Of a stretch of 5,473 nucleotides of DNA, positions 1 through 5,473 are shown in pieces (position 1 is the stretch's first letter; each line of letters starts with the position of its first letter). Source of the DNA: a virus. Its lineage: Duplodnaviria > Heunggongvirae > Uroviricota > Caudoviricetes. Under the pieces are notes generated by a model. The model was not told where the DNA came from, searched no databases, and saw only the letters and a program-made list of their open reading frames with translations. The position numbers were made by a program, and so were the translations under genes. Location: the IMG/VR virus record IMGVR_UViG_2778261058_000013; one strand, written 5' to 3'.

Positions 1-1401
1 CAGGCGGACAAGCTGCCCCGCCTTGACTTTTATCCCCTCCGTTTTGAGGAATGTCTCAACGTCCATTTCTCCGGTGCTGATTGCCACCGTGCGCCAGTGT
101 TTGATCTCCCTGTTGCCGCCGTCCTTTGCCCCCTGTAATTTCCCGGAACCGTTAAACAGCGTATAGGCTGACGTGGACACCTCCCGCGCGTTTCCGGCCT
201 GGCCTATTTCATCCAGGGGTAAAAGCCCGTCATTGTGTGCCTCTGCTTCGTTGGCGATACCTAACGCTGTGCCGTACCAGGTCAGCCGCTGCGCGTCCGG
301 CTCTCCCCATAAACTTGATGCGATGTTCTGCGTTGTGGTCTTACCTGCCGATGACTGTTCGAAAAGATGTACCCCGAAGCCGTCAGCGCCCACCAGCCCG
401 ATTAATGGTGCAGATAACGATACCGCCACACCCAGCATCATGGACGGATTACCACCAGCCAGCCGCGCAACGGTATCGCGCCAGCCCTCCGCCGTTCCTG
501 CCACGGAATAACCATTAACAGCAGCCGTTTTTCCGGTAAACAGGACTGGCTTTTCGCAATCACCAATGACCGAACCGTCCGGCATGATGTACGCGCCAAA
601 ATGCCAGCCCGTTGTTGTGCTTAACTGCCATTCCTCATGGTTTCCGCTTAACTGCATCCAGTCAGCCAGGATAGCCCTGTATTTGCCGTTGGTTGTCACG
701 TTCAGGCCGTGGTCTTTCAGCAACCGCCAGCCGTCACGGTCGCCAATGCCCCCGCACGGAACCGCCATTGTGATGACTTCATGGTTTGCGGGTTTCTTCC
801 AGCGCATCACGCGGTAATGCTCTTTGCCGATTGTCCCCGTTCCCAGTAGTTCAAGCGGGGAACATAACCACGTCTCAGGCCGGATAATTTCGCCTGACTG
901 CTTGTCAACTTTTGGCGTTACCCAGAAAACACCATCGGCGCGGCTTTCAACGCGGGGCTTTAATTCATCATCGCTATAGCTTCCTGTGGCTTTTTTCTTT
1001 AAGGGCAACACCAGACTTTCCCCGCGCTCGTATTCGTCTTTCAGTCGGGCAAGCTGTGGTGTCCAGTCCTCCAGTAAATCGCCGTTCTCGTCACAAAAAC
1101 AGGCTTCCTTAACACCAGCCACTGCCAGCAGGGTTTCAATCTGTAGCGCCAGTTTGTCATCCAGTTTTCCGGCACGTCTGACGATGGCGCGTGACCGACC
1201 CTCATCCACAATACGCAGGTTTTCCAGATTACCCAGGTCACGCCGTCCGAGATAAACAGGTGGTATTTTGTCGCCGCGCTTTCTGGCTTCTCCGCCCTGC
1301 ATGTAATGCTCTGCGTGGCTGTATGCGTCATCCCCCGCAAAAATCACTGCATCCTCGCCTTTATCTTTCGGTAACAGTTTTACGTTCGGCGCCAGTTTCA
1401 T
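1..1401 (-). CDS. Replication protein, primase/helicase-like with a P-loop NTPase domain (possibly DUF927/toprim-type); 3'-partial, continues beyond position 1
   Basis: The minus strand frame from 1401 to 1 has no stop codon (467 codons, checked by hand); it is absent from the ORF track because no stop falls in the window. ATG 1401..1399 overlaps the stop of the upstream gene (ATGA), with GGGGAAAGG just upstream. Translation begins MKLAPNVKLLPKDKGEDAVIFAGDDAYSHAEHYMQGGEARKRGDK and contains a Walker A-like SSAGKTT (about 334..354) and Walker B-like LLPLDEIG (about 202..225). The plus-strand ORFs across this span are antisense shadows. Confidence 0.8.
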   Translation of the reverse strand, partial: MKLAPNVKLLPKDKGEDAVIFAGDDAYSHAEHYMQGGEARKRGDKIPPVYLGRRDLGNLENLRIVDEGRSRAIVRRAGKLDDKLALQIETLLAVAGVKEACFCDENGDLLEDWTPQLARLKDEYERGESLVLPLKKKATGSYSDDELKPRVESRADGVFWVTPKVDKQSGEIIRPETWLCSPLELLGTGTIGKEHYRVMRWKKPANHEVITMAVPCGGIGDRDGWRLLKDHGLNVTTNGKYRAILADWMQLSGNHEEWQLSTTTGWHFGAYIMPDGSVIGDCEKPVLFTGKTAAVNGYSVAGTAEGWRDTVARLAGGNPSMMLGVAVSLSAPLIGLVGADGFGVHLFEQSSAGKTTTQNIASSLWGEPDAQRLTWYGTALGIANEAEAHNDGLLPLDEIGQAGNAREVSTSAYTLFNGSGKLQGAKDGGNREIKHWRTVAISTGEMDVETFLKTEGIKVKAGQLVRL

Positions 1402-1712
1402 TTTGCCTTTCCCCGTTCACGAATAATTTCACGTACTGCCTTAATGCGTTCCATACCTGTAACGCGCATGATTCTGTCGATGTCGCTTAAGTTCGCTGGT
1501 GGTGCTTTGCTTACCAGGGTGAATTCACTCTCAAAACGCATATGAGACGACACGCAGGGATGCGCATAACCTTCGCGGATATAAGTCACGCGAAAATCGT
1601 CAACGGTTTTTATCGTTATTCGTCCGCCGTATTTATCTTTGAAAATATCGTCGGGGCGGATTTCAGGCCGAGGGAGGCCGCTGGCAGTAAAGCCAGAATT
1701 TTTCTTTTTCAT
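1398..1712 (-). CDS. Hypothetical protein (104 aa), translationally coupled to the downstream primase-like gene
   Basis: ORF-track ORF with ATG at 1712..1710 preceded by GAGGAA and an 8-nt spacer; starts MKKK; its TGA stop overlaps the primase ATG (ATGA at 1398..1401). No family recognised. Confidence 0.6.
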   Translation of the reverse strand: MKKKNSGFTASGLPRPEIRPDDIFKDKYGGRITIKTVDDFRVTYIREGYAHPCVSSHMRFESEFTLVSKAPPANLSDIDRIMRVTGMERIKAVREIIRERGKAK

Positions 1713-1782
1713 GGTTTTTATTCCTCTGCGCGGGTCTTGTCGTGCATTTCCATAACCGCGTTTAATTCATCAATAACCGGGG

Positions 1783-1926
1783 TTAACAGAGTGCTGAAAG
1801 CAGAAAGTAAATACCCCCCCGCTCGGTGTTATTTTCGGTTAATTCATCCAGTACCGTTTTTAATTCAAGCGCCCTGATTAATGCATTCTCAGAATGAATA
1901 AGAACATCGAAAGGGATTTTATCCAT
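1783..1926 (-). CDS. Hypothetical small protein (47 aa as written), possibly frameshift-truncated at a G7 tract; one extra G would give 79 aa ending at 1718
   Basis: ATG 1926..1924 preceded by GGAGGA with an 8-nt spacer; translation MDKIPFDVLIHSENALIRALELKTVLDELTENNTERGGIYFLLSALC. A C7 run at 1814..1820 (G7 on the coding strand) lies inside the ORF. Below the ORF-track length cut-off. Confidence 0.35.
   Translation of the reverse strand: MDKIPFDVLIHSENALIRALELKTVLDELTENNTERGGIYFLLSALC
1814..1820 (-). repeat. Homopolymeric G7 tract (C7 on plus strand) inside a small ORF
   Basis: Read directly: ataCCCCCCCgctcgg on the plus strand. Confidence 0.95.
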
Positions 1927-2152
1927 GGCTTACATCCTCCGGGAATTTTCTTCTGTAACGCGCCTCTGCAACATATTCCGCATAGTCCGACGCAATATTG
2001 AGAATCTCCACACCCTCTGACCTGTAGCCACTGGTACTGATAAGAAAAAATGCGGCTTTCATCATGTCGGCAACGCATAACAACGCATCGCCTGTATGTT
2101 CCGGTGCGCCATCAAATTCCTGTTTCAGGGCATTAAAACGATCATCACGCAT
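1919..2152 (-). CDS. Hypothetical protein (77 aa from ATG 2152; the ORF-track frame extends to 2179); may be the C-terminal part of a fused roughly 155-aa protein
   Basis: Frame open 2179..1919. ATG at 2152..2150 sits 2 nt downstream of the G8 tract, which could act as a G-rich ribosome-binding site, and overlaps the TGA of the upstream ORF. Translation MRDDRFNALKQEFDGAPEHTGDALL...EDVSHG. Start choice is uncertain. Confidence 0.4.
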   Translation of the reverse strand: MRDDRFNALKQEFDGAPEHTGDALLCVADMMKAAFFLISTSGYRSEGVEILNIASDYAEYVAEARYRRKFPEDVSHG

Positions 2153-2384
2153 AACCCCCCCCATTTTCACAATCAGCAATCAGGATGGCTTTAGCCTCAT
2201 TCAGTGCCATATCAGCACTAAATTGCATAACAGCCAGTGAGTGAGGAACGAAAGCCCCGGCATATTCTGTTTCGCTGGTGGCGTGCTTATGTGCCCTGTC
2301 CGCGATAACAGAAATATCAATCAGCGCGTGCATTAGCGTTTTGATGGCTTCGGCGGCTGCGTCCGGCGTGTTTTTATTGCACAT
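2145..2384 (-). CDS. Hypothetical protein (79 aa)
   Basis: ORF-track ORF; ATG 2384..2382 preceded by AGGGGG with a 6-nt spacer and overlapping the 3' end of the upstream 68-aa ORF; translation MCNKNTPDAAAEAIKTLMHALIDISVIADRAHKH...CENGGGYA, ending just after the G8 tract. Confidence 0.5.
   Translation of the reverse strand: MCNKNTPDAAAEAIKTLMHALIDISVIADRAHKHATSETEYAGAFVPHSLAVMQFSADMALNEAKAILIADCENGGGYA
2155..2162 (-). repeat. Homopolymeric G8 tract (C8 on plus strand) at the junction of two small ORFs
   Basis: Read directly: ataaCCCCCCCCatttt on the plus strand; on the coding strand it encodes the GGG near the C-terminus of the 79-aa ORF. Confidence 0.95.
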
Positions 2385-2580
2385 GGTGCACCCCCTGGCG
2401 AATACGGGCGGCGAATACCATCACGCAGCCAGCCGGTGATTGCTGACGGGCTTCCTGTTCGCTGGTGGCCTCAATGGTAATCATGCGCGGTTGTGCCGTG
2501 CTCAGAGCGATAAAACGCCAGATATATTTATTCAGGTTGTGCGAGTCCCGCCCTTGCGGGTGTGTGGTATGATTTAACAT
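2374..2580 (-). CDS. Hypothetical protein (68 aa), first gene of the minus-strand small-ORF operon
   Basis: Internal ATG at 2580..2578 of the long ORF-track frame 2374..3492, preceded by GAGGT with a 5-nt spacer; translation MLNHTTHPQGRDSHNLNKYIWRFIALSTAQPRMITIEATSEQEARQQSPAGCVMVFAARIRQGVHHVQ. The longer upstream extension is rejected. Confidence 0.45.
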   Translation of the reverse strand: MLNHTTHPQGRDSHNLNKYIWRFIALSTAQPRMITIEATSEQEARQQSPAGCVMVFAARIRQGVHHVQ

Positions 2581-2676
2581 AGCTACCTCGATACTGTTGC
2601 TATCGTTGGTGGTTAGAAGCCCCGTTACTGCTCCTACAGTGCGGGGTTTCGTCGTTTCTGTGCCTTGCATTAACAA

Positions 2677-2759
2677 GGTGTAAGACACAATGTAAAATAC
2701 AAGTGTCTTACACGTCAAGCCTTCAAAATAATTTTTTTTCGTGTATATTGTCTTACACC
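2677..2759. promoter_or_regulatory. Divergent promoter region with three copies of a 12-bp operator-like motif (core TGTCTTACAC)
   Basis: GGTGTAAGACAC at 2677..2688 (inverted) and GTGTCTTACACG at 2703..2714 form a palindrome with a 14-bp spacer; a third copy TTGTCTTACACC lies at 2748..2759. On the plus strand a putative -35 TTCAAA (2722..2727) and -10 TATATT (2744..2749) are 16 bp apart; on the minus strand a putative -35 TTGACG (2718..2713) is followed by TACATT. A T8 run sits at 2732..2739. Confidence 0.5.
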
Positions 2760-2779: not shown

Positions 2780-2959
2780 ATGGCAACAGGTCCAAAGAAT
2801 GCAAAATCACAATCTGTAACTGCACGTATTGCCCATGAAATTATTGAAGGCATGGAAAACGTGAAAGAAGAAGGCGAAAGTACAGGGCAGTTTATAAGTG
2901 CAGCCATGCGCGGCGAGATCAAACGCCGCCAGCGTCGCAAGGCCAAAGAGCAGGAGTAA
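2780..2959 (+). CDS. Small basic protein (59 aa), possible ribbon-helix-helix-type DNA-binding regulator
   Basis: ATG at 2780 preceded by a consensus AAGGAG (2768..2773) with a 6-nt spacer; translation MATGPKNAKSQSVTARIAHEIIEGMENVKEEGESTGQFISAAMRGEIKRRQRRKAKEQE. The ORF-track start at GTG 2741 lies inside the promoter and is less likely. The RHH assignment is a guess from the N-terminal pattern. Confidence 0.6.
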   Translation: MATGPKNAKSQSVTARIAHEIIEGMENVKEEGESTGQFISAAMRGEIKRRQRRKAKEQE

Positions 2960-3016: not shown

Positions 3017-3214
3017 ATGACTGACAAATCATTAAAGAAATTATCCTCATCCAGGAAAAAACAACGCAAAAATGCGGTAAGCGAACAAGAACAGGAAAGA
3101 TTCGCACCTTGTTCGTTTGCTCTTGAGAAATTCCTTAAAGAGTACAGGCGCACAAAAATGGGATCGCATGCCTGGAAAACATCGCAGCATGGCGATACTA
3201 AAGAGCAGGAATAG
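3017..3214 (+). CDS. Hypothetical small basic protein (65 aa)
   Basis: ORF-track ORF; ATG 3017 with a weak AGGT 7 nt upstream; lysine/arginine-rich N-terminus; same strand as and immediately downstream of the 2780..2959 gene. Confidence 0.4.
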   Translation: MTDKSLKKLSSSRKKQRKNAVSEQEQERFAPCSFALEKFLKEYRRTKMGSHAWKTSQHGDTKEQE

Positions 3215-3317
3215 CCCACCAGCAAGCCAGCACACTGATCACATTGCCCACCAGCCGCAAATGTGGCATTGTTGGCTATGCTCATGCGTTGGGGATAACG
3301 TGTAGCTTGTGTCGAGG

Positions 3318-3346
3318 GGCCACCGTAGCGGGTGGCCTTTGTTTTG
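3318..3346 (+). terminator. Rho-independent terminator for the plus-strand small-gene pair
   Basis: Perfect 7-bp stem GGCCACC (3318..3324) / GGTGGCC (3331..3337) with 6-nt loop GTAGCG, followed by TTTGTTTTG. Confidence 0.5.
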
Positions 3347-3392: not shown

Positions 3393-3441
3393 TCCCCTGC
3401 ACTGATCCATTTTTTTCGCAGCAGGTTAATTGTTCGCAAGG

Positions 3442-3466
3442 GCGCTCCGGCAACGGGGCGCTTTTT
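3442..3466 (+). terminator. Rho-independent terminator-like hairpin on the plus strand
   Basis: Stem GCGCTCC (3442..3448) / GGGGCGC (3455..3461), seven pairs including one G-U wobble in RNA, loop GGCAAC, followed by TTTTTGTT. The minus strand has no U-tract after the stem. Confidence 0.45.
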
Positions 3467-3496: not shown

Positions 3497-3703
3497 TTAC
3501 GCAGCCGTTCCGCGCGCTTCTTCCTCGCGCTCTTTCAGCCAGGCCAGCACTTCATCTTCATACCAGCCAACACGGCGCAGACCGATTTTGAAGCCTTTCG
3601 GGAATTTTCCGGCGTTGATCATGTCCTGTAGCGAACTGTCTGCCTTGATGCGCAGAATATTTTTTACTTCCTGACGGGTAAGAATTTTTCTGATTACTTC
3701 CAT
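3497..3703 (-). CDS. alpA: AlpA/Vis-family phage transcriptional regulator (excisionase-like helix-turn-helix protein)
   Basis: ORF-track ORF; ATG 3703..3701 preceded by GAGGT with an 8-nt spacer; translation MEVIRKILTRQEVKNILRIKADSSLQDMINAGKFPKGFKIGLRRVGWYEDEVLAWLKEREEEARGTAA has the size (68 aa) and pattern of the AlpA family, and the gene sits in the expected position beside the integrase. Confidence 0.85.
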   Translation of the reverse strand: MEVIRKILTRQEVKNILRIKADSSLQDMINAGKFPKGFKIGLRRVGWYEDEVLAWLKEREEEARGTAA

Positions 3704-3767
3704 CGTGTTTTACCTCGTTAATACGGCGTATTCCGGTGATAAATACGGTAAAACAGGGCAGGGCGGG

Positions 3768-3810
3768 AAAAACAGTACTCACCGTTTTAAAACGGTACTC
3801 ACTGTTTTTT
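3768..3810. promoter_or_regulatory. Two tandem 20-bp near-palindromic repeats upstream of alpA (candidate regulator-binding sites)
   Basis: AAAACAGTACTCACCGTTTT (3769..3788) and AAAACGGTACTCACTGTTTT (3789..3808), 18/20 identical; each unit has partial dyad symmetry (AAAACNGT...ACNGTTTT). A possible degenerate third copy lies near 3741..3760. Confidence 0.4.
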
Positions 3811-3835
3811 ATCTCATTGATTACGCTTTCTTTTT

Positions 3836-3868
3836 GCAAAAAAATAGCGACCGCAAGGGGCCGCTATT
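3836..3868 (-). terminator. Rho-independent terminator after the 80-aa ORF and integrase transcription unit
   Basis: Stem AATAGCG (3843..3849) / CGCTATT (3862..3868) with a GC-rich interior; on the minus strand the stem is followed by a U7 tract (A-run 3838..3844 on plus); begins 5 nt past the stop at 3873. Confidence 0.55.
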
Positions 3869-3872
3869 GTGA

Positions 3873-4115
3873 TTACCGTTTCCACTTCTTAGGTCGCCCA
3901 CCACATTTAAGGCTGGTGGGCCTCAGCACCTTGTCGATGCTTTCAGCCAGATTTTTCGATGCGCCACGCGAGCGTAAAAAACTGACTACCTCGTGTTTTG
4001 TGGGGGCTGTTGATTTGTCTTCCGGATCGTATGTTGACCAGAATTCACGATTTGCCATTAACGCCAGTTGCAGCCCTTCGCCGCAAGCAGGGGATACCTT
4101 TTCATTGAAAAACAC
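3873..4115 (-). CDS. Hypothetical small protein (80 aa) with a basic GRPKKWKR C-terminus, between the integrase and alpA
   Basis: ORF-track ORF with a GTG start at 4115..4113 preceded by a consensus AAGGAG (4129..4124) and an 8-nt spacer; an alternative internal ATG gives MANREFWSTYDPEDK. Translation ends ...LKCGGRPKKWKR. Confidence 0.5.
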   Translation of the reverse strand: MFFNEKVSPACGEGLQLALMANREFWSTYDPEDKSTAPTKHEVVSFLRSRGASKNLAESIDKVLRPTSLKCGGRPKKWKR

Positions 4116-4171
4116 CTGGATAGCTCCTTGAATTTCATGATTTGGGTGACTCCTCTCTGTATTGGGTGGGT

Positions 4172-4210
4172 TGTGGCGATTATACGATGGTTTAGCATGG
4201 TTTGCATCGC
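4172..4210 (-). promoter_or_regulatory. Candidate sigma70 promoter for the 80-aa ORF
   Basis: Consensus TATAAT on the minus strand (plus 4184..4179) with a weak -35 ATGCAA 17 bp upstream; lies in the 116-bp gap between the integrase stop and the ORF's ribosome-binding site. Confidence 0.3.
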
Positions 4211-4231
4211 TTTTACTGGTTTTTTGTACAG

Positions 4232-5473
4232 TTACACGGCACGGATACCCCTTTTACCACTGGCTATGGTCACTCCGGTAGCTGCGGCCTCTACAAATTC
4301 CCCCCACCAGCGCATAAGCACCACGCGCTTTTCCAGGTAGTTACTTCTGTTATATGCCCGCCTTACCTCGTTCGTGTCCACGTGTGCGAGTGCGGCCTCG
4401 ATTACGTCCGGCTCGAATCCTTCCTCGTTCGCTGCTGTACTGAATATGGCGCGTAATCCGTGAGACACCAGCACACCAGCGTATCCCATCCGGCGCAATG
4501 CAGCGTTAGCGGTCTGGCTGCTCATTGGCAGCATTGGATTTTTAAGGCTGGGAAAAACATGTTCCCTGTGTGCGCTGATTGGCTTCATGGTTTCCAGTAC
4601 AGCCATAGCCTGACCGCAAAGGGGGATCACGTGGTCACGGCGCATCTTCATGCGTCCGGCTGGAATCGTCCATGTTTCGGCATCGAGATCTATTTCTTCC
4701 CAGCGTGCGGCGGCTGCTTCGGCTGGGCGTGCTACGGTCAGCAGTTGCCACTCAATCAGCAATCTGGTTTGCCGTTCTATGCTGGCGACCGATAAATCGT
4801 GCATTAGCTGCGGTAGCTGTTCCGGTCGGATGGTTGGCATGTGCTTTTTGGTGGGTGAGGGGAATGCCTTGCGGACGTTCGCGGCGGTGTTGATGTCAAT
4901 CAGCCCACTGTTGGCAGCAAAATCCATCACTTCATTGATGCGTTGTAAAACGCGTTTCAGGGTTTCCAGGTTGCCGCGTGCTTTAATGGGGGTGAGTATC
5001 TCAACAAAGCGGCGAGCTGTGAGGGTATCTATTGGCGTGTTTCCGATGTACGGGAATACGTATTTTTCCAGGGATCGCCAGATATCCTTAATCGTGTTGT
5101 AAGCCAGATTCTGGCCTTTTTTCATCTCGTACCAGTCCGAGGCAACTTTTTCGAACGTGTTGCCCTTTTTCCGACTCTCTGCTTCACGTTTCCGGCGTTC
5201 GTGGTCCTGTGGGTCAACTCCCTTCGCTATGAGTGACCTGTATTCATTCCGTCGTTCTCTGGCATCGGACAGGGAAACATCATTCAGCGATCCGAGGCTG
5301 ATGATAGTCCGTTTTTTATCTGCCGGGCGGTAGTACGTAAAACGCCAGATTTTTGATCCGGAGGGTTTCACCAGAAGAAATAATCCTCCACCATCCTGCA
5401 GGGTGTATTCCTTTTCCCCTGGTCGTGCGTTTTTGATCTCCGTAATGGTTAGTGGGGTGGTTTTTCGTGCCAT
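4232..5473 (-). CDS. int: Site-specific tyrosine recombinase, P4-type phage integrase (413 aa, complete)
   Basis: ORF-track ORF; ATG at the window edge (5473..5471). The N-terminus MARKTTPLTITEIKNARPGEKEYTLQDGGGLFLLVKPSGSKIWRFTYY is typical of the arm-binding domain of P4-like integrases; the C-terminal domain has the HxLR motif (VSHGLRAIF) and a catalytic-Tyr context (RRAYNRSNYLEKR). Confidence 0.95.
   Translation of the reverse strand: MARKTTPLTITEIKNARPGEKEYTLQDGGGLFLLVKPSGSKIWRFTYYRPADKKRTIISLGSLNDVSLSDARERRNEYRSLIAKGVDPQDHERRKREAESRKKGNTFEKVASDWYEMKKGQNLAYNTIKDIWRSLEKYVFPYIGNTPIDTLTARRFVEILTPIKARGNLETLKRVLQRINEVMDFAANSGLIDINTAANVRKAFPSPTKKHMPTIRPEQLPQLMHDLSVASIERQTRLLIEWQLLTVARPAEAAAARWEEIDLDAETWTIPAGRMKMRRDHVIPLCGQAMAVLETMKPISAHREHVFPSLKNPMLPMSSQTANAALRRMGYAGVLVSHGLRAIFSTAANEEGFEPDVIEAALAHVDTNEVRRAYNRSNYLEKRVVLMRWWGEFVEAAATGVTIASGKRGIRAV

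Follow-up and report, generated by a model that had tools for sequence, protein, structure and literature searches.

Length-variable G-tracts and a candidate antisense RNA in the small-gene operon of a probable Escherichia phage-inducible chromosomal island

We analyzed a stretch of 5,473 nucleotides (nt), hereafter "the window", from the IMG/VR virus record IMGVR_UViG_2778261058_000013 (Caudoviricetes), and in particular five small open reading frames (ORFs) that lie in it between a regulatory region and a primase gene. Taken as a whole, the explanation that we think probably right is that the five small genes form the early, replication-proximal operon of an Escherichia phage-inducible chromosomal island (PICI). 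What is new at this locus is a pair of apparently hypermutable G-tracts, the gene fusion and gene truncation that they bring about, and a candidate antisense RNA over the start of the first gene.

The ORF list and our own translation confirmed the original prediction that five minus-strand ORFs run from position 2580 to 1398 with overlapping or abutting ends, each with its own ribosome-binding site (Table 1). The same ORFs are called by the NCBI annotation pipeline in E. coli relatives. The overlaps are 11 nt between ORF1 and ORF2, 8 nt between ORF2 and ORF3 (ATGCGTGA), 8 nt between ORF3 and ORF4 (ATGGATAA) and 4 nt (ATGA) between ORF5 and the primase ORF, which starts at 1401; ORF4 and ORF5 are the sole separated pair, with a gap of 70 nt. 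Purine-rich Shine-Dalgarno-like stretches (GAGGT, GGGGG, G8, GGAGGA and GAGGAA) lie 2-8 nt upstream of every start. This arrangement supports the proposal that the genes form a compact, translationally coupled operon leading from the regulatory region to a phage-satellite primase. For ORF3 the list offers a TTG at 2179, which would give 86 amino acids (aa), but the ATG at 2152 is the better start because it is used by the NCBI annotation in relatives and because distant ORF3 homologues (75-78 aa) start exactly at its methionine. One type of junction recurs among small genes as a cassette: the upstream gene ends in H-x-stop (CAT GNN TAA/TGA), the next ATG lies inside that end, and GGAGG or GGGGG stands about 6 nt upstream of the contained ATG. 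It was seen in the window at 2374-2384, 2145-2152 and 1919-1926, and in two related loci (L097, 3729-4228; L100, 2844-3255), and it may serve translational coupling plus module shuffling.

The junction of ORF2 and ORF3 contains the first G-tract (tract A). On the coding strand it reads AAT GGG GGG GGT TAT GCG TGA, with the ORF3 start, ATG CGT GA, inside it. Computed translations show that the length of the run sets the products: the G8 of the window yields a separate ORF2 of 79 aa and ORF3 of 77 aa, G7 a single fused protein of 154 aa, G10 a fused protein of 155 aa, and G9 an ORF2 of 86 aa with a 28-nt overlap into ORF3. Among 94 loci (88 from IMG/VR, five E. coli chromosomes and the window), the tract is 6 G long in one, 7 in 24, 8 in 37, 9 in 20, 10 in four and 11 in two; six further copies are interrupted (CCACCCCC, CCCACCCC, CCACCCCCCCC), and all six keep the frame of 8. 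The five chromosomes have 8, 8, 7, 9 and 9 G, and at the 7 the NCBI annotation has one 154-aa gene. Tract length differs in 3 of the 9 groups of loci that have identical 300-nt flanks on both sides. When each combination of flank haplotype and tract was counted once, the split type was seen in 39, the fused type in 22 and the G9/G6 type in 18. The poly-G tracts had been proposed as a possible on/off layer; their lengths do vary in nature and do alter the products, but tract A is no simple on/off switch, because both halves are translatable in all three frames and what it toggles is separate against fused.

The second G-tract (tract B) lies inside ORF4. The 47-aa gene of the original prediction is present as a frame, yet it is a frameshift-truncated copy of a 69-aa gene. 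Computed products are 47 aa with the 7 G of the window, 69 aa with 8 G and 52 aa with 9 G, and these exact products were found on 88, 164 and 42 contigs, respectively. The full-length forms include proteins of 68, 69 and 70 aa, and the full-length stop (TAA at 1720-1718) falls just after the ORF5 Shine-Dalgarno sequence. Counting the window, 14 loci carry tract B; its length there ranges from 5 to 9 G, it is in frame in 5 of them, and the downstream frame is intact in 9 of 9 frameshifted alleles. Most relatives have a 77-aa ORF4 allele without the tract, which aligns to the 69-aa form over its full length including the C-terminus; the out-of-frame remnant in the window aligns with the C-terminus of this tract-less allele and with phrog_2196. 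The window is thus in the ancestral state at tract A, as argued below, and in a truncating state at tract B. In two loci with a 9-G tract B (L005 and L076), a 37-aa ORF (MPNRGGDLFSAF...) starts upstream of the tract in another frame and covers the ORF4 C-terminus, so the C-terminal part of ORF4 might still be made separately there.

Both tracts are probably slipped-strand mutation hot spots, which is a simple explanation for the variation in length. Only 13 runs of at least seven G or C were found in 891 kb of comparable DNA outside tracts A and B, so two such runs within 350 bp are not due to chance. The tracts also share some properties with contingency loci: they are slip-prone (G8 and G7), they lie in or next to coding sequence with products that depend on frame, and their lengths are polymorphic among identical or near-identical sequences. 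They might be adaptive contingency loci that selection maintains because reversible switching diversifies the dealings of the satellite with its helpers or hosts. At both sites, tracts of 7-11 G have persisted among alleles with 78-96% protein identity, though such runs are rare elsewhere; different lengths occur on identical flanks, the downstream frames have never decayed, and all states are common in nature. Against this, lengths are unimodal around 8 and no frame is enriched beyond the ancestral one, both halves are translatable in every tract A frame, so that the phenotypic contrast may be small, and the ORF4 allele of most relatives lacks a tract. The operon is probably silent in the integrated state, in which case selection could act on switching only during induction. 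We regard maintenance by selection as possible, on the doubtful side, and rate a tolerated hot spot with real consequences as the more likely of the two.

A second alternative holds that ORF2 and ORF3 are one 154-aa gene, of which the window carries a frameshifted pseudogene copy. The best 120 protein clusters listed are all full-length fused forms of 154-156 aa, the 154-aa PHROGs family phrog_2512 is matched end to end by the fused protein, and among the 25 complete genomes that share the window's exact flanks, 20 carry 7 or 10 G. More distant relatives tell a different story. Homologues at 39-58% identity are separate small proteins (73-84 aa for ORF2, 75-78 aa for ORF3) with ordinary ends and no glycine run, and each half also occurs alone beside unrelated genes: in L097 the ORF3 homologue directly follows an Icd-like gene with no ORF2 homologue there, and in L099 and L100/L101 the ORF2 homologue is followed by unrelated small genes. 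After the ORF2 homologue of L099 and L100 a G5 Shine-Dalgarno-like run stands shortly before the next ATG, and in L100 the overlap is again 8 nt. The G8 junction of the window is the standard 8-nt ATGnnnTGA overlap of the family with a G-rich Shine-Dalgarno sequence, the interrupted and hence stabilized tracts are all in the split frame, and the linker of the fused protein is predicted to be disordered. A single ancestral gene is therefore unlikely, and the fused 154-aa form as the ancestor is ruled out by the distant loci. Because the distant homologues are separate, each half occurs alone, 6 of 6 interrupted tracts are in the frame of 8, and the split state is the commonest haplotype, these comparisons indicate that ORF2 and ORF3 are two genes, that the split state is ancestral and that slippage has given rise to the fused protein repeatedly, as a derived form. 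Tract A itself looks like an expanded G-rich Shine-Dalgarno sequence.

Sequencing or assembly errors at homopolymers are a very unlikely source of the length differences. Long-read assemblies are error-prone at homopolymers of 7-10 bases and most differences are plus or minus one base, but each exact variant protein is present on many independent contigs (42 to 164) of several origins, interrupted variants exist, and the same pattern appears in a viral-contig collection, a protein collection and complete RefSeq genomes. In-frame variants that differ by three G are also common for both tracts (154/155 aa for the fused protein, 68/69/70 aa for ORF4). Least probable of all is programmed ribosomal frameshifting or transcriptional slippage at the G-run, by which the fused protein would be made from a split template at a fixed ratio: the G8 contains a formally slippery heptamer and both frames are open across it, but the length of such a site would be conserved and here varies from 6 to 11, the fusion needs a +1 shift where such heptamers favour -1, and known transcriptional slippage occurs chiefly at A/T runs.

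The region upstream of ORF1 is strongly conserved as a leader in an alignment of 14 relatives (72-95% identity). The -35 element of the promoter-like site begins with TTGAC, which is invariant in this alignment. Copies of an operator-like repeat, GTG-N5-CAC, flank the operon promoter and the divergent YlcI/YnfO-family gene, and between types the central five bases change jointly in all copies (TAAGA, GGCCA, GCTGA or CGATT), as expected for candidate operators of distinct immunity groups. Near the expected 5' end of the operon transcript lies a small hairpin, CCTTG-N6-CAAGG (2662-2680, minus strand), whose stem is kept in most of the 14 relatives while its loop varies.

On the opposite strand, the start of ORF1 is covered by a candidate cis-antisense RNA. 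Its extended -10 element lies inside icd codons 3-6 and matches the pattern TGnTATRAT, which is invariant in 34 distinct sequences. The predicted transcript spans the complement of the icd start codon and Shine-Dalgarno sequence, a first hairpin, the stretch UUGGUGGUUAGA, which is invariant, and a GC-rich terminator hairpin (2616-2650) followed by a U-rich tail. The structure is specific to the plus strand: across 16 sequences that strand has 319 Watson-Crick, 55 G-U and 8 mismatched pairs and the operon strand 319, 2 and 61, with mean folding energies of -36.7 and -23.0 kcal/mol, respectively, and the plus strand is the more stable in 16 of 16. A covariance model gave 88 full-length matches in related loci, and the motif is paired with the start of an Icd-like gene in about 80 related loci. 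In an alignment of 54 distinct sequences, which was fitted to the covariance model and so favours the structure somewhat, 97.9% of cells pair; the value is 89.1% for shuffles and no more than 53% for slid controls. Both partners change in ten of the pairs, and none of 500 shuffles reached this. A predicted promoter of its own, an intrinsic terminator and a conserved, covarying, strand-specific structure over the icd start together make this a candidate antisense RNA. A scan of the whole window on both strands against Rfam (E ≤ 1) found no family, C4 and isrK included, and our search of the literature on antisense RNA at PICI icd genes and on the P4 CI/seqB sequences returned nothing usable.

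Two further observations concern this motif. In L097, a distant relative, an uncalled 70-aa Icd-like ORF (2465-2677, plus strand) came to light because the RNA model has a match antisense to its start. Also, the motif is present twice in some related islands, whose second copy is more divergent and lies some 700-800 bp away from the first (L096, 8025-8115; L070, 11859-11949; L047, 8952-9042; L021, 2326-2415; L081, 7156-7245; L044, 2327-2416; L073, 8366-8455), whereas the window has one copy. The second copies probably correspond to partial "Icd-like" pseudogenes near alpA in L002-L004.

None of the five ORFs had originally been placed in a known family, which does not hold for the first and the last. 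ORF1 is Icd-like, in a family named for inhibitors of host cell division: residues 19-62 span the whole 48-position model of NF033153 (phage_ICD_like) with 71 bits against a cut-off of 25 (E 6e-20), phrog_6196 is matched at E 1.5e-45, and its counterparts in relatives are annotated as Icd-like. ORF5 belongs to DUF4222 (PF13973): residues 16-67 align to positions 1-52 of the 53 in the model, with 64.3 bits against a gathering score of 27 (E 7.6e-18). In every locus examined a DUF4222 gene directly precedes that of the replicase and usually overlaps its start; annotations of the replicase differ, being DUF927 protein, RepA-family helicase or DNA primase family protein.

One DUF4222 member has been studied by experiment, the regulator RgdR (ECs1581), a 99-aa protein of O-island 51/CP-933C in E. 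coli O157:H7 that acts as an activator of LEE1 and type III secretion and as a repressor of motility, and whose DNA binding is non-specific (PMC3378721, PMC10877973). Its RGD tripeptide at residues 20-22 was reported to be important for activation of type III secretion, and orthologues are reported from OI-51 of EDL933 and from strains CFT073 and ED1a (PMC3378721, PMC10877973). In most of the related loci a 99-aa RGD allele takes the position of ORF5; the tripeptide at residues 20-22 is RGD in 58, PGD in 20, PDD in three and CGD in one. ORF5 is about 48% identical to the 99-aa alleles and has PDD, so that it is a DUF4222 family member and not an RgdR-type allele. Its AlphaFold model has a core (residues 20-70) with per-residue confidence (pLDDT) above 90, in which a five-stranded SH3/Tudor/KOW-like barrel is followed by helices.

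For ORF2, ORF3 and ORF4 the absence of a recognized family stood. Their only PHROGs matches are families of unknown function (phrog_5146, phrog_24341 and phrog_2196, respectively), no Pfam or NCBIfam match rose above threshold, and neither PADLOC nor the PDB gave a match. Sequence searches of the PDB with ORF1, fused ORF2-3, ORF4 and ORF5 likewise found nothing significant. ORF2 and ORF3 are nonetheless conserved and under purifying selection, with pN/pS ratios of 0.32 (44 distinct alleles) and 0.42 (33 distinct alleles). Their family is narrow: a collection of 1.84 billion proteins contains 52 representatives of it at the 50%-identity level. The named ORF4 homologues are all from Escherichia or Shigella. 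The originally suggested roles as helper-derepression or helper-interference factors would be speculative. ORF2 is predicted to be a helical hairpin (helices 9-37 and 39-73, pLDDT ~80) and ORF3 to be helical. The model of the fused protein has two helical hairpins joined at tract A by a low-confidence linker, which fits two separable units. We considered whether ORF2, ORF3 and ORF4 could be tandem paralogues from a single helical-hairpin family and rejected this, since the hhalign probability is below 1% for all three pairs. One 78-aa protein (P0243) is a natural chimera whose N-terminal two thirds belong to the ORF3 family and whose C-terminal third matches the 77-aa ORF4 allele, which points to deletion or recombination between adjacent small genes.

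The identification of the element as a PICI rests on the co-oriented integrase, AlpA and DUF927 primase genes, which are all on the minus strand as in the Gram-negative PICI layout, on the gene content of the closest complete-genome relative (L102), and on capsid modules in other relatives. L102 is 97.9% identical across 94% of the window. Its island lies at tRNA-Pro, beside yejM, and its primase gene (710 aa) is followed by genes for SSB, ProQ/FinO, PerC, DUF1441 and the small terminase subunit; in other relatives capsid, protease and portal genes lie downstream of the operon. Of 5426 complete E. coli genomes, 1485 match parts of the 1183-bp operon region, and just 19 of these do so over at least 80% of its length, so the region is mosaic. 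No window protein matched psu, delta, sid, epsilon or the P4 alpha primase in Pfam, NCBIfam or PHROGs, a search in which the P4 late region would lie outside the window, and a PADLOC scan of the window proteins gave no defence-system match. Two terminator-like hairpins (3315-3340 and 3438-3465, plus strand) lie in a stretch of 280 bp that contains no convincing ORF and separates the 65-aa plus-strand gene from the end of alpA. In another relative (L001) the replicase gene beside the operon is annotated as frameshifted (3717-5004), and the neighbour of the integrase is a truncated terminase, which places that island in or beside another prophage.

Table 1. Genes and sequence features of the window, in order along the minus strand
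Feature	Position	Strand	Remarks
Tyrosine integrase	4232-5473	-	
80-aa ORF	3873-4115	-	
AlpA-family regulator	3497-3703	-	PF05930
65-aa protein gene	3017-3214	+	Between AlpA and operon
YlcI/YnfO-family protein gene	2780-2959	+	NF041551; between AlpA and operon, divergent from operon
Operator-like GTG-N5-CAC (three copies)	2678-2688 (GTGTAAGACAC), 2703-2713 (inverted), 2748-2759		Read from sequence
Promoter-like site	2689-2718	-	-35 TTGACG (2718-2713), -10 TACATT (2694-2689); consensus scan
Candidate cis-antisense RNA	2565-2659	+	~80 nt; extended -10 TGGTATGAT (2565-2573), start near 2580
ORF1	2374-2580	-	68 aa; first operon gene
ORF2 (N-half)	2145-2384	-	79 aa
Tract A	2155-2162	-	G8 on coding strand (C8 on plus strand); last ORF2 codons and ORF3 Shine-Dalgarno-like stretch
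ORF3 (C-half)	1919-2152	-	77 aa from ATG at 2152
ORF4	1783-1926	-	47 aa in the window
Tract B	1814-1820	-	G7 on coding strand (C7 on plus strand); inside ORF4
Out-of-frame C-terminal ORF4 remnant	1718-1813	-	One added G gives read-through to TAA at 1720-1718
ORF5	1398-1712	-	104 aa
DUF927 primase/helicase, N-terminal 467 aa	1..1401	-	PF06048, E 3e-46; phrog_1139 DNA primase; continues past window end

These features suggest the following course of events. Transcription would start from the promoter near 2690-2718, amid operator repeats shared with the divergent small gene, and the transcript would span the five translationally coupled small genes, the Icd-like gene first, and continue into the primase gene. 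By analogy with c4 of phage P1, the plus-strand antisense RNA would cover the icd ribosome-binding site and start codon, block icd translation and hold the operon down, and this repression could extend to the primase through coupling and polarity. The predicted Tudor/KOW-like barrel of ORF5 would suit a cofactor that binds nucleic acid or RNA polymerase and serves early expression or replication, and ORF2, ORF3 and ORF4 would be small helical accessory proteins. One-base slips in tract A would switch between two coupled genes (G8), a fused protein (G7 or G10) and an extended, overlapping ORF2 (G9), while slips in tract B would make ORF4 either full-length, at 69 aa (G8), or truncated (G7 or G9).

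Several facts weigh against parts of this explanation. Promoter-like sites in the scan are no more numerous than in shuffled sequence, and the U-tail of the antisense terminator is only modest and was missed by a simple scan. The unimodal distribution of tract A lengths is near the expectation for unselected slippage. Among complete genomes with the exact 40-nt flanks of the window, lengths 7, 8, 9 and 10 occur in 18, 4, 1 and 2, counts that come from 25 possibly clonal genomes and are not an estimate of frequency. Because the fused length of 7 dominates on these flanks, the split state is not favoured in every lineage. This ranking is the opposite of that in the IMG/VR sample and may reflect a clonal lineage. 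Finally, the model of the fused ORF2-3 protein has a low overall pLDDT of 65, and Foldseek found only non-significant helical matches to it in the PDB (E above 1), so we draw no functional inference for this protein.

A bolder interpretation, which we consider doubtful, is that both poly-G tracts are under selection and let the satellite vary its early accessory proteins among sister cells, one by reversibly joining or parting two adjacent genes and the other by alternating a third gene between full length and truncation, while an undescribed family of antisense RNAs, paired with icd-like genes, gates the operon. If true, it would place simple-sequence phase variation inside the conflict of satellite, helper and host in Enterobacteria. 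PICIs are very common in E. coli, as the number of genomes with parts of the operon indicates, yet the small genes ahead of the primase are unstudied, and RgdR, of the same cassette family, already connects such islands with the control of virulence in O157. Should the G-tracts switch at a high rate, island annotations would be unstable for a biological reason (from two to four "hypothetical proteins" are counted across related islands, with both fused and split calls), and isogenic cells would carry functionally different satellites, which offers a handle on the roles of these proteins in helper exploitation. The antisense RNA, if expressed, would be an RNA-based brake for Gram-negative PICIs analogous to P1/P4 immunity, and it could explain how the replication operon stays silent. 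The Tudor/KOW-like fold predicted for DUF4222 suggests a testable idea of how RgdR might act on transcription.

The locus shares features with several known systems. E. coli PICIs and capsid-forming PICIs (EcCICFT073, EcCIED1a and EcCIEDL933) have, like the window, integrase, AlpA and primase genes in one direction, and these are followed, as in the relatives of the window, by SSB, PerC, small terminase subunit or capsid genes. The PICI papers that we consulted do not describe the small genes that separate the regulatory zone from the primase, the G-tracts or the antisense RNA, and our search of the literature on PICIs together with homopolymeric tracts or phase variation found no relevant report. 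The strains that carry the RgdR orthologues (EDL933, CFT073 and ED1a) are the strains for which the prototype PICIs are named. ORF5 resembles RgdR in its Pfam domain, its size class and an N-terminal G-x-T-A-S-G stretch, and in related loci 99-aa RGD alleles occupy the same position upstream of the replicase. It differs from RgdR in its length of 104 aa, its identity of about 48% and in having PDD for RGD; the effects of RgdR were measured on host genes, not within the island.

In the P1 immI region, the c4 RNA blocks translation of icd and thereby expression of ant. In both P1 (c4 RNA-icd-ant) and the left operon of P4 (CI RNA, kil/icd-like...alpha primase), an Icd-like ORF opens the operon and the downstream genes depend on it, and the P4 operon ends in the primase. 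The window is similar in its Icd-like first gene, in a candidate small RNA complementary to the ribosome-binding site of that gene, a plausible brake, and, as in P4, in the primase at the end of the operon. It is dissimilar in that the candidate RNA is encoded in cis on the opposite strand, whereas the P1 and P4 RNAs are processed from the sense strand, and in having no homologue of Ant, epsilon or other P4 accessory proteins by Pfam, NCBIfam or PHROGs. P22 sar (against ant) and lambda OOP (against cII) are short cis-antisense RNAs with their own promoter and an intrinsic terminator. The candidate RNA would likewise consist of some 70-80 nt opposite the start region of a regulatory gene, but it has no sequence or Rfam relationship to either, and its target would be a satellite icd-like gene.

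The tracts themselves can be compared with the poly-G contingency loci of Neisseria, Haemophilus, Campylobacter and Helicobacter, including those that switch C-termini. In both cases a tract of 7-11 G or C lies in or at the end of a coding sequence, its length is polymorphic among near-identical sequences, and the products depend on frame. The differences are that the host is E. coli, in which poly-G phase variation is unusual, that the carrier is a phage satellite, and that tract A toggles between the fusion and the fission of two genes rather than between on and off.

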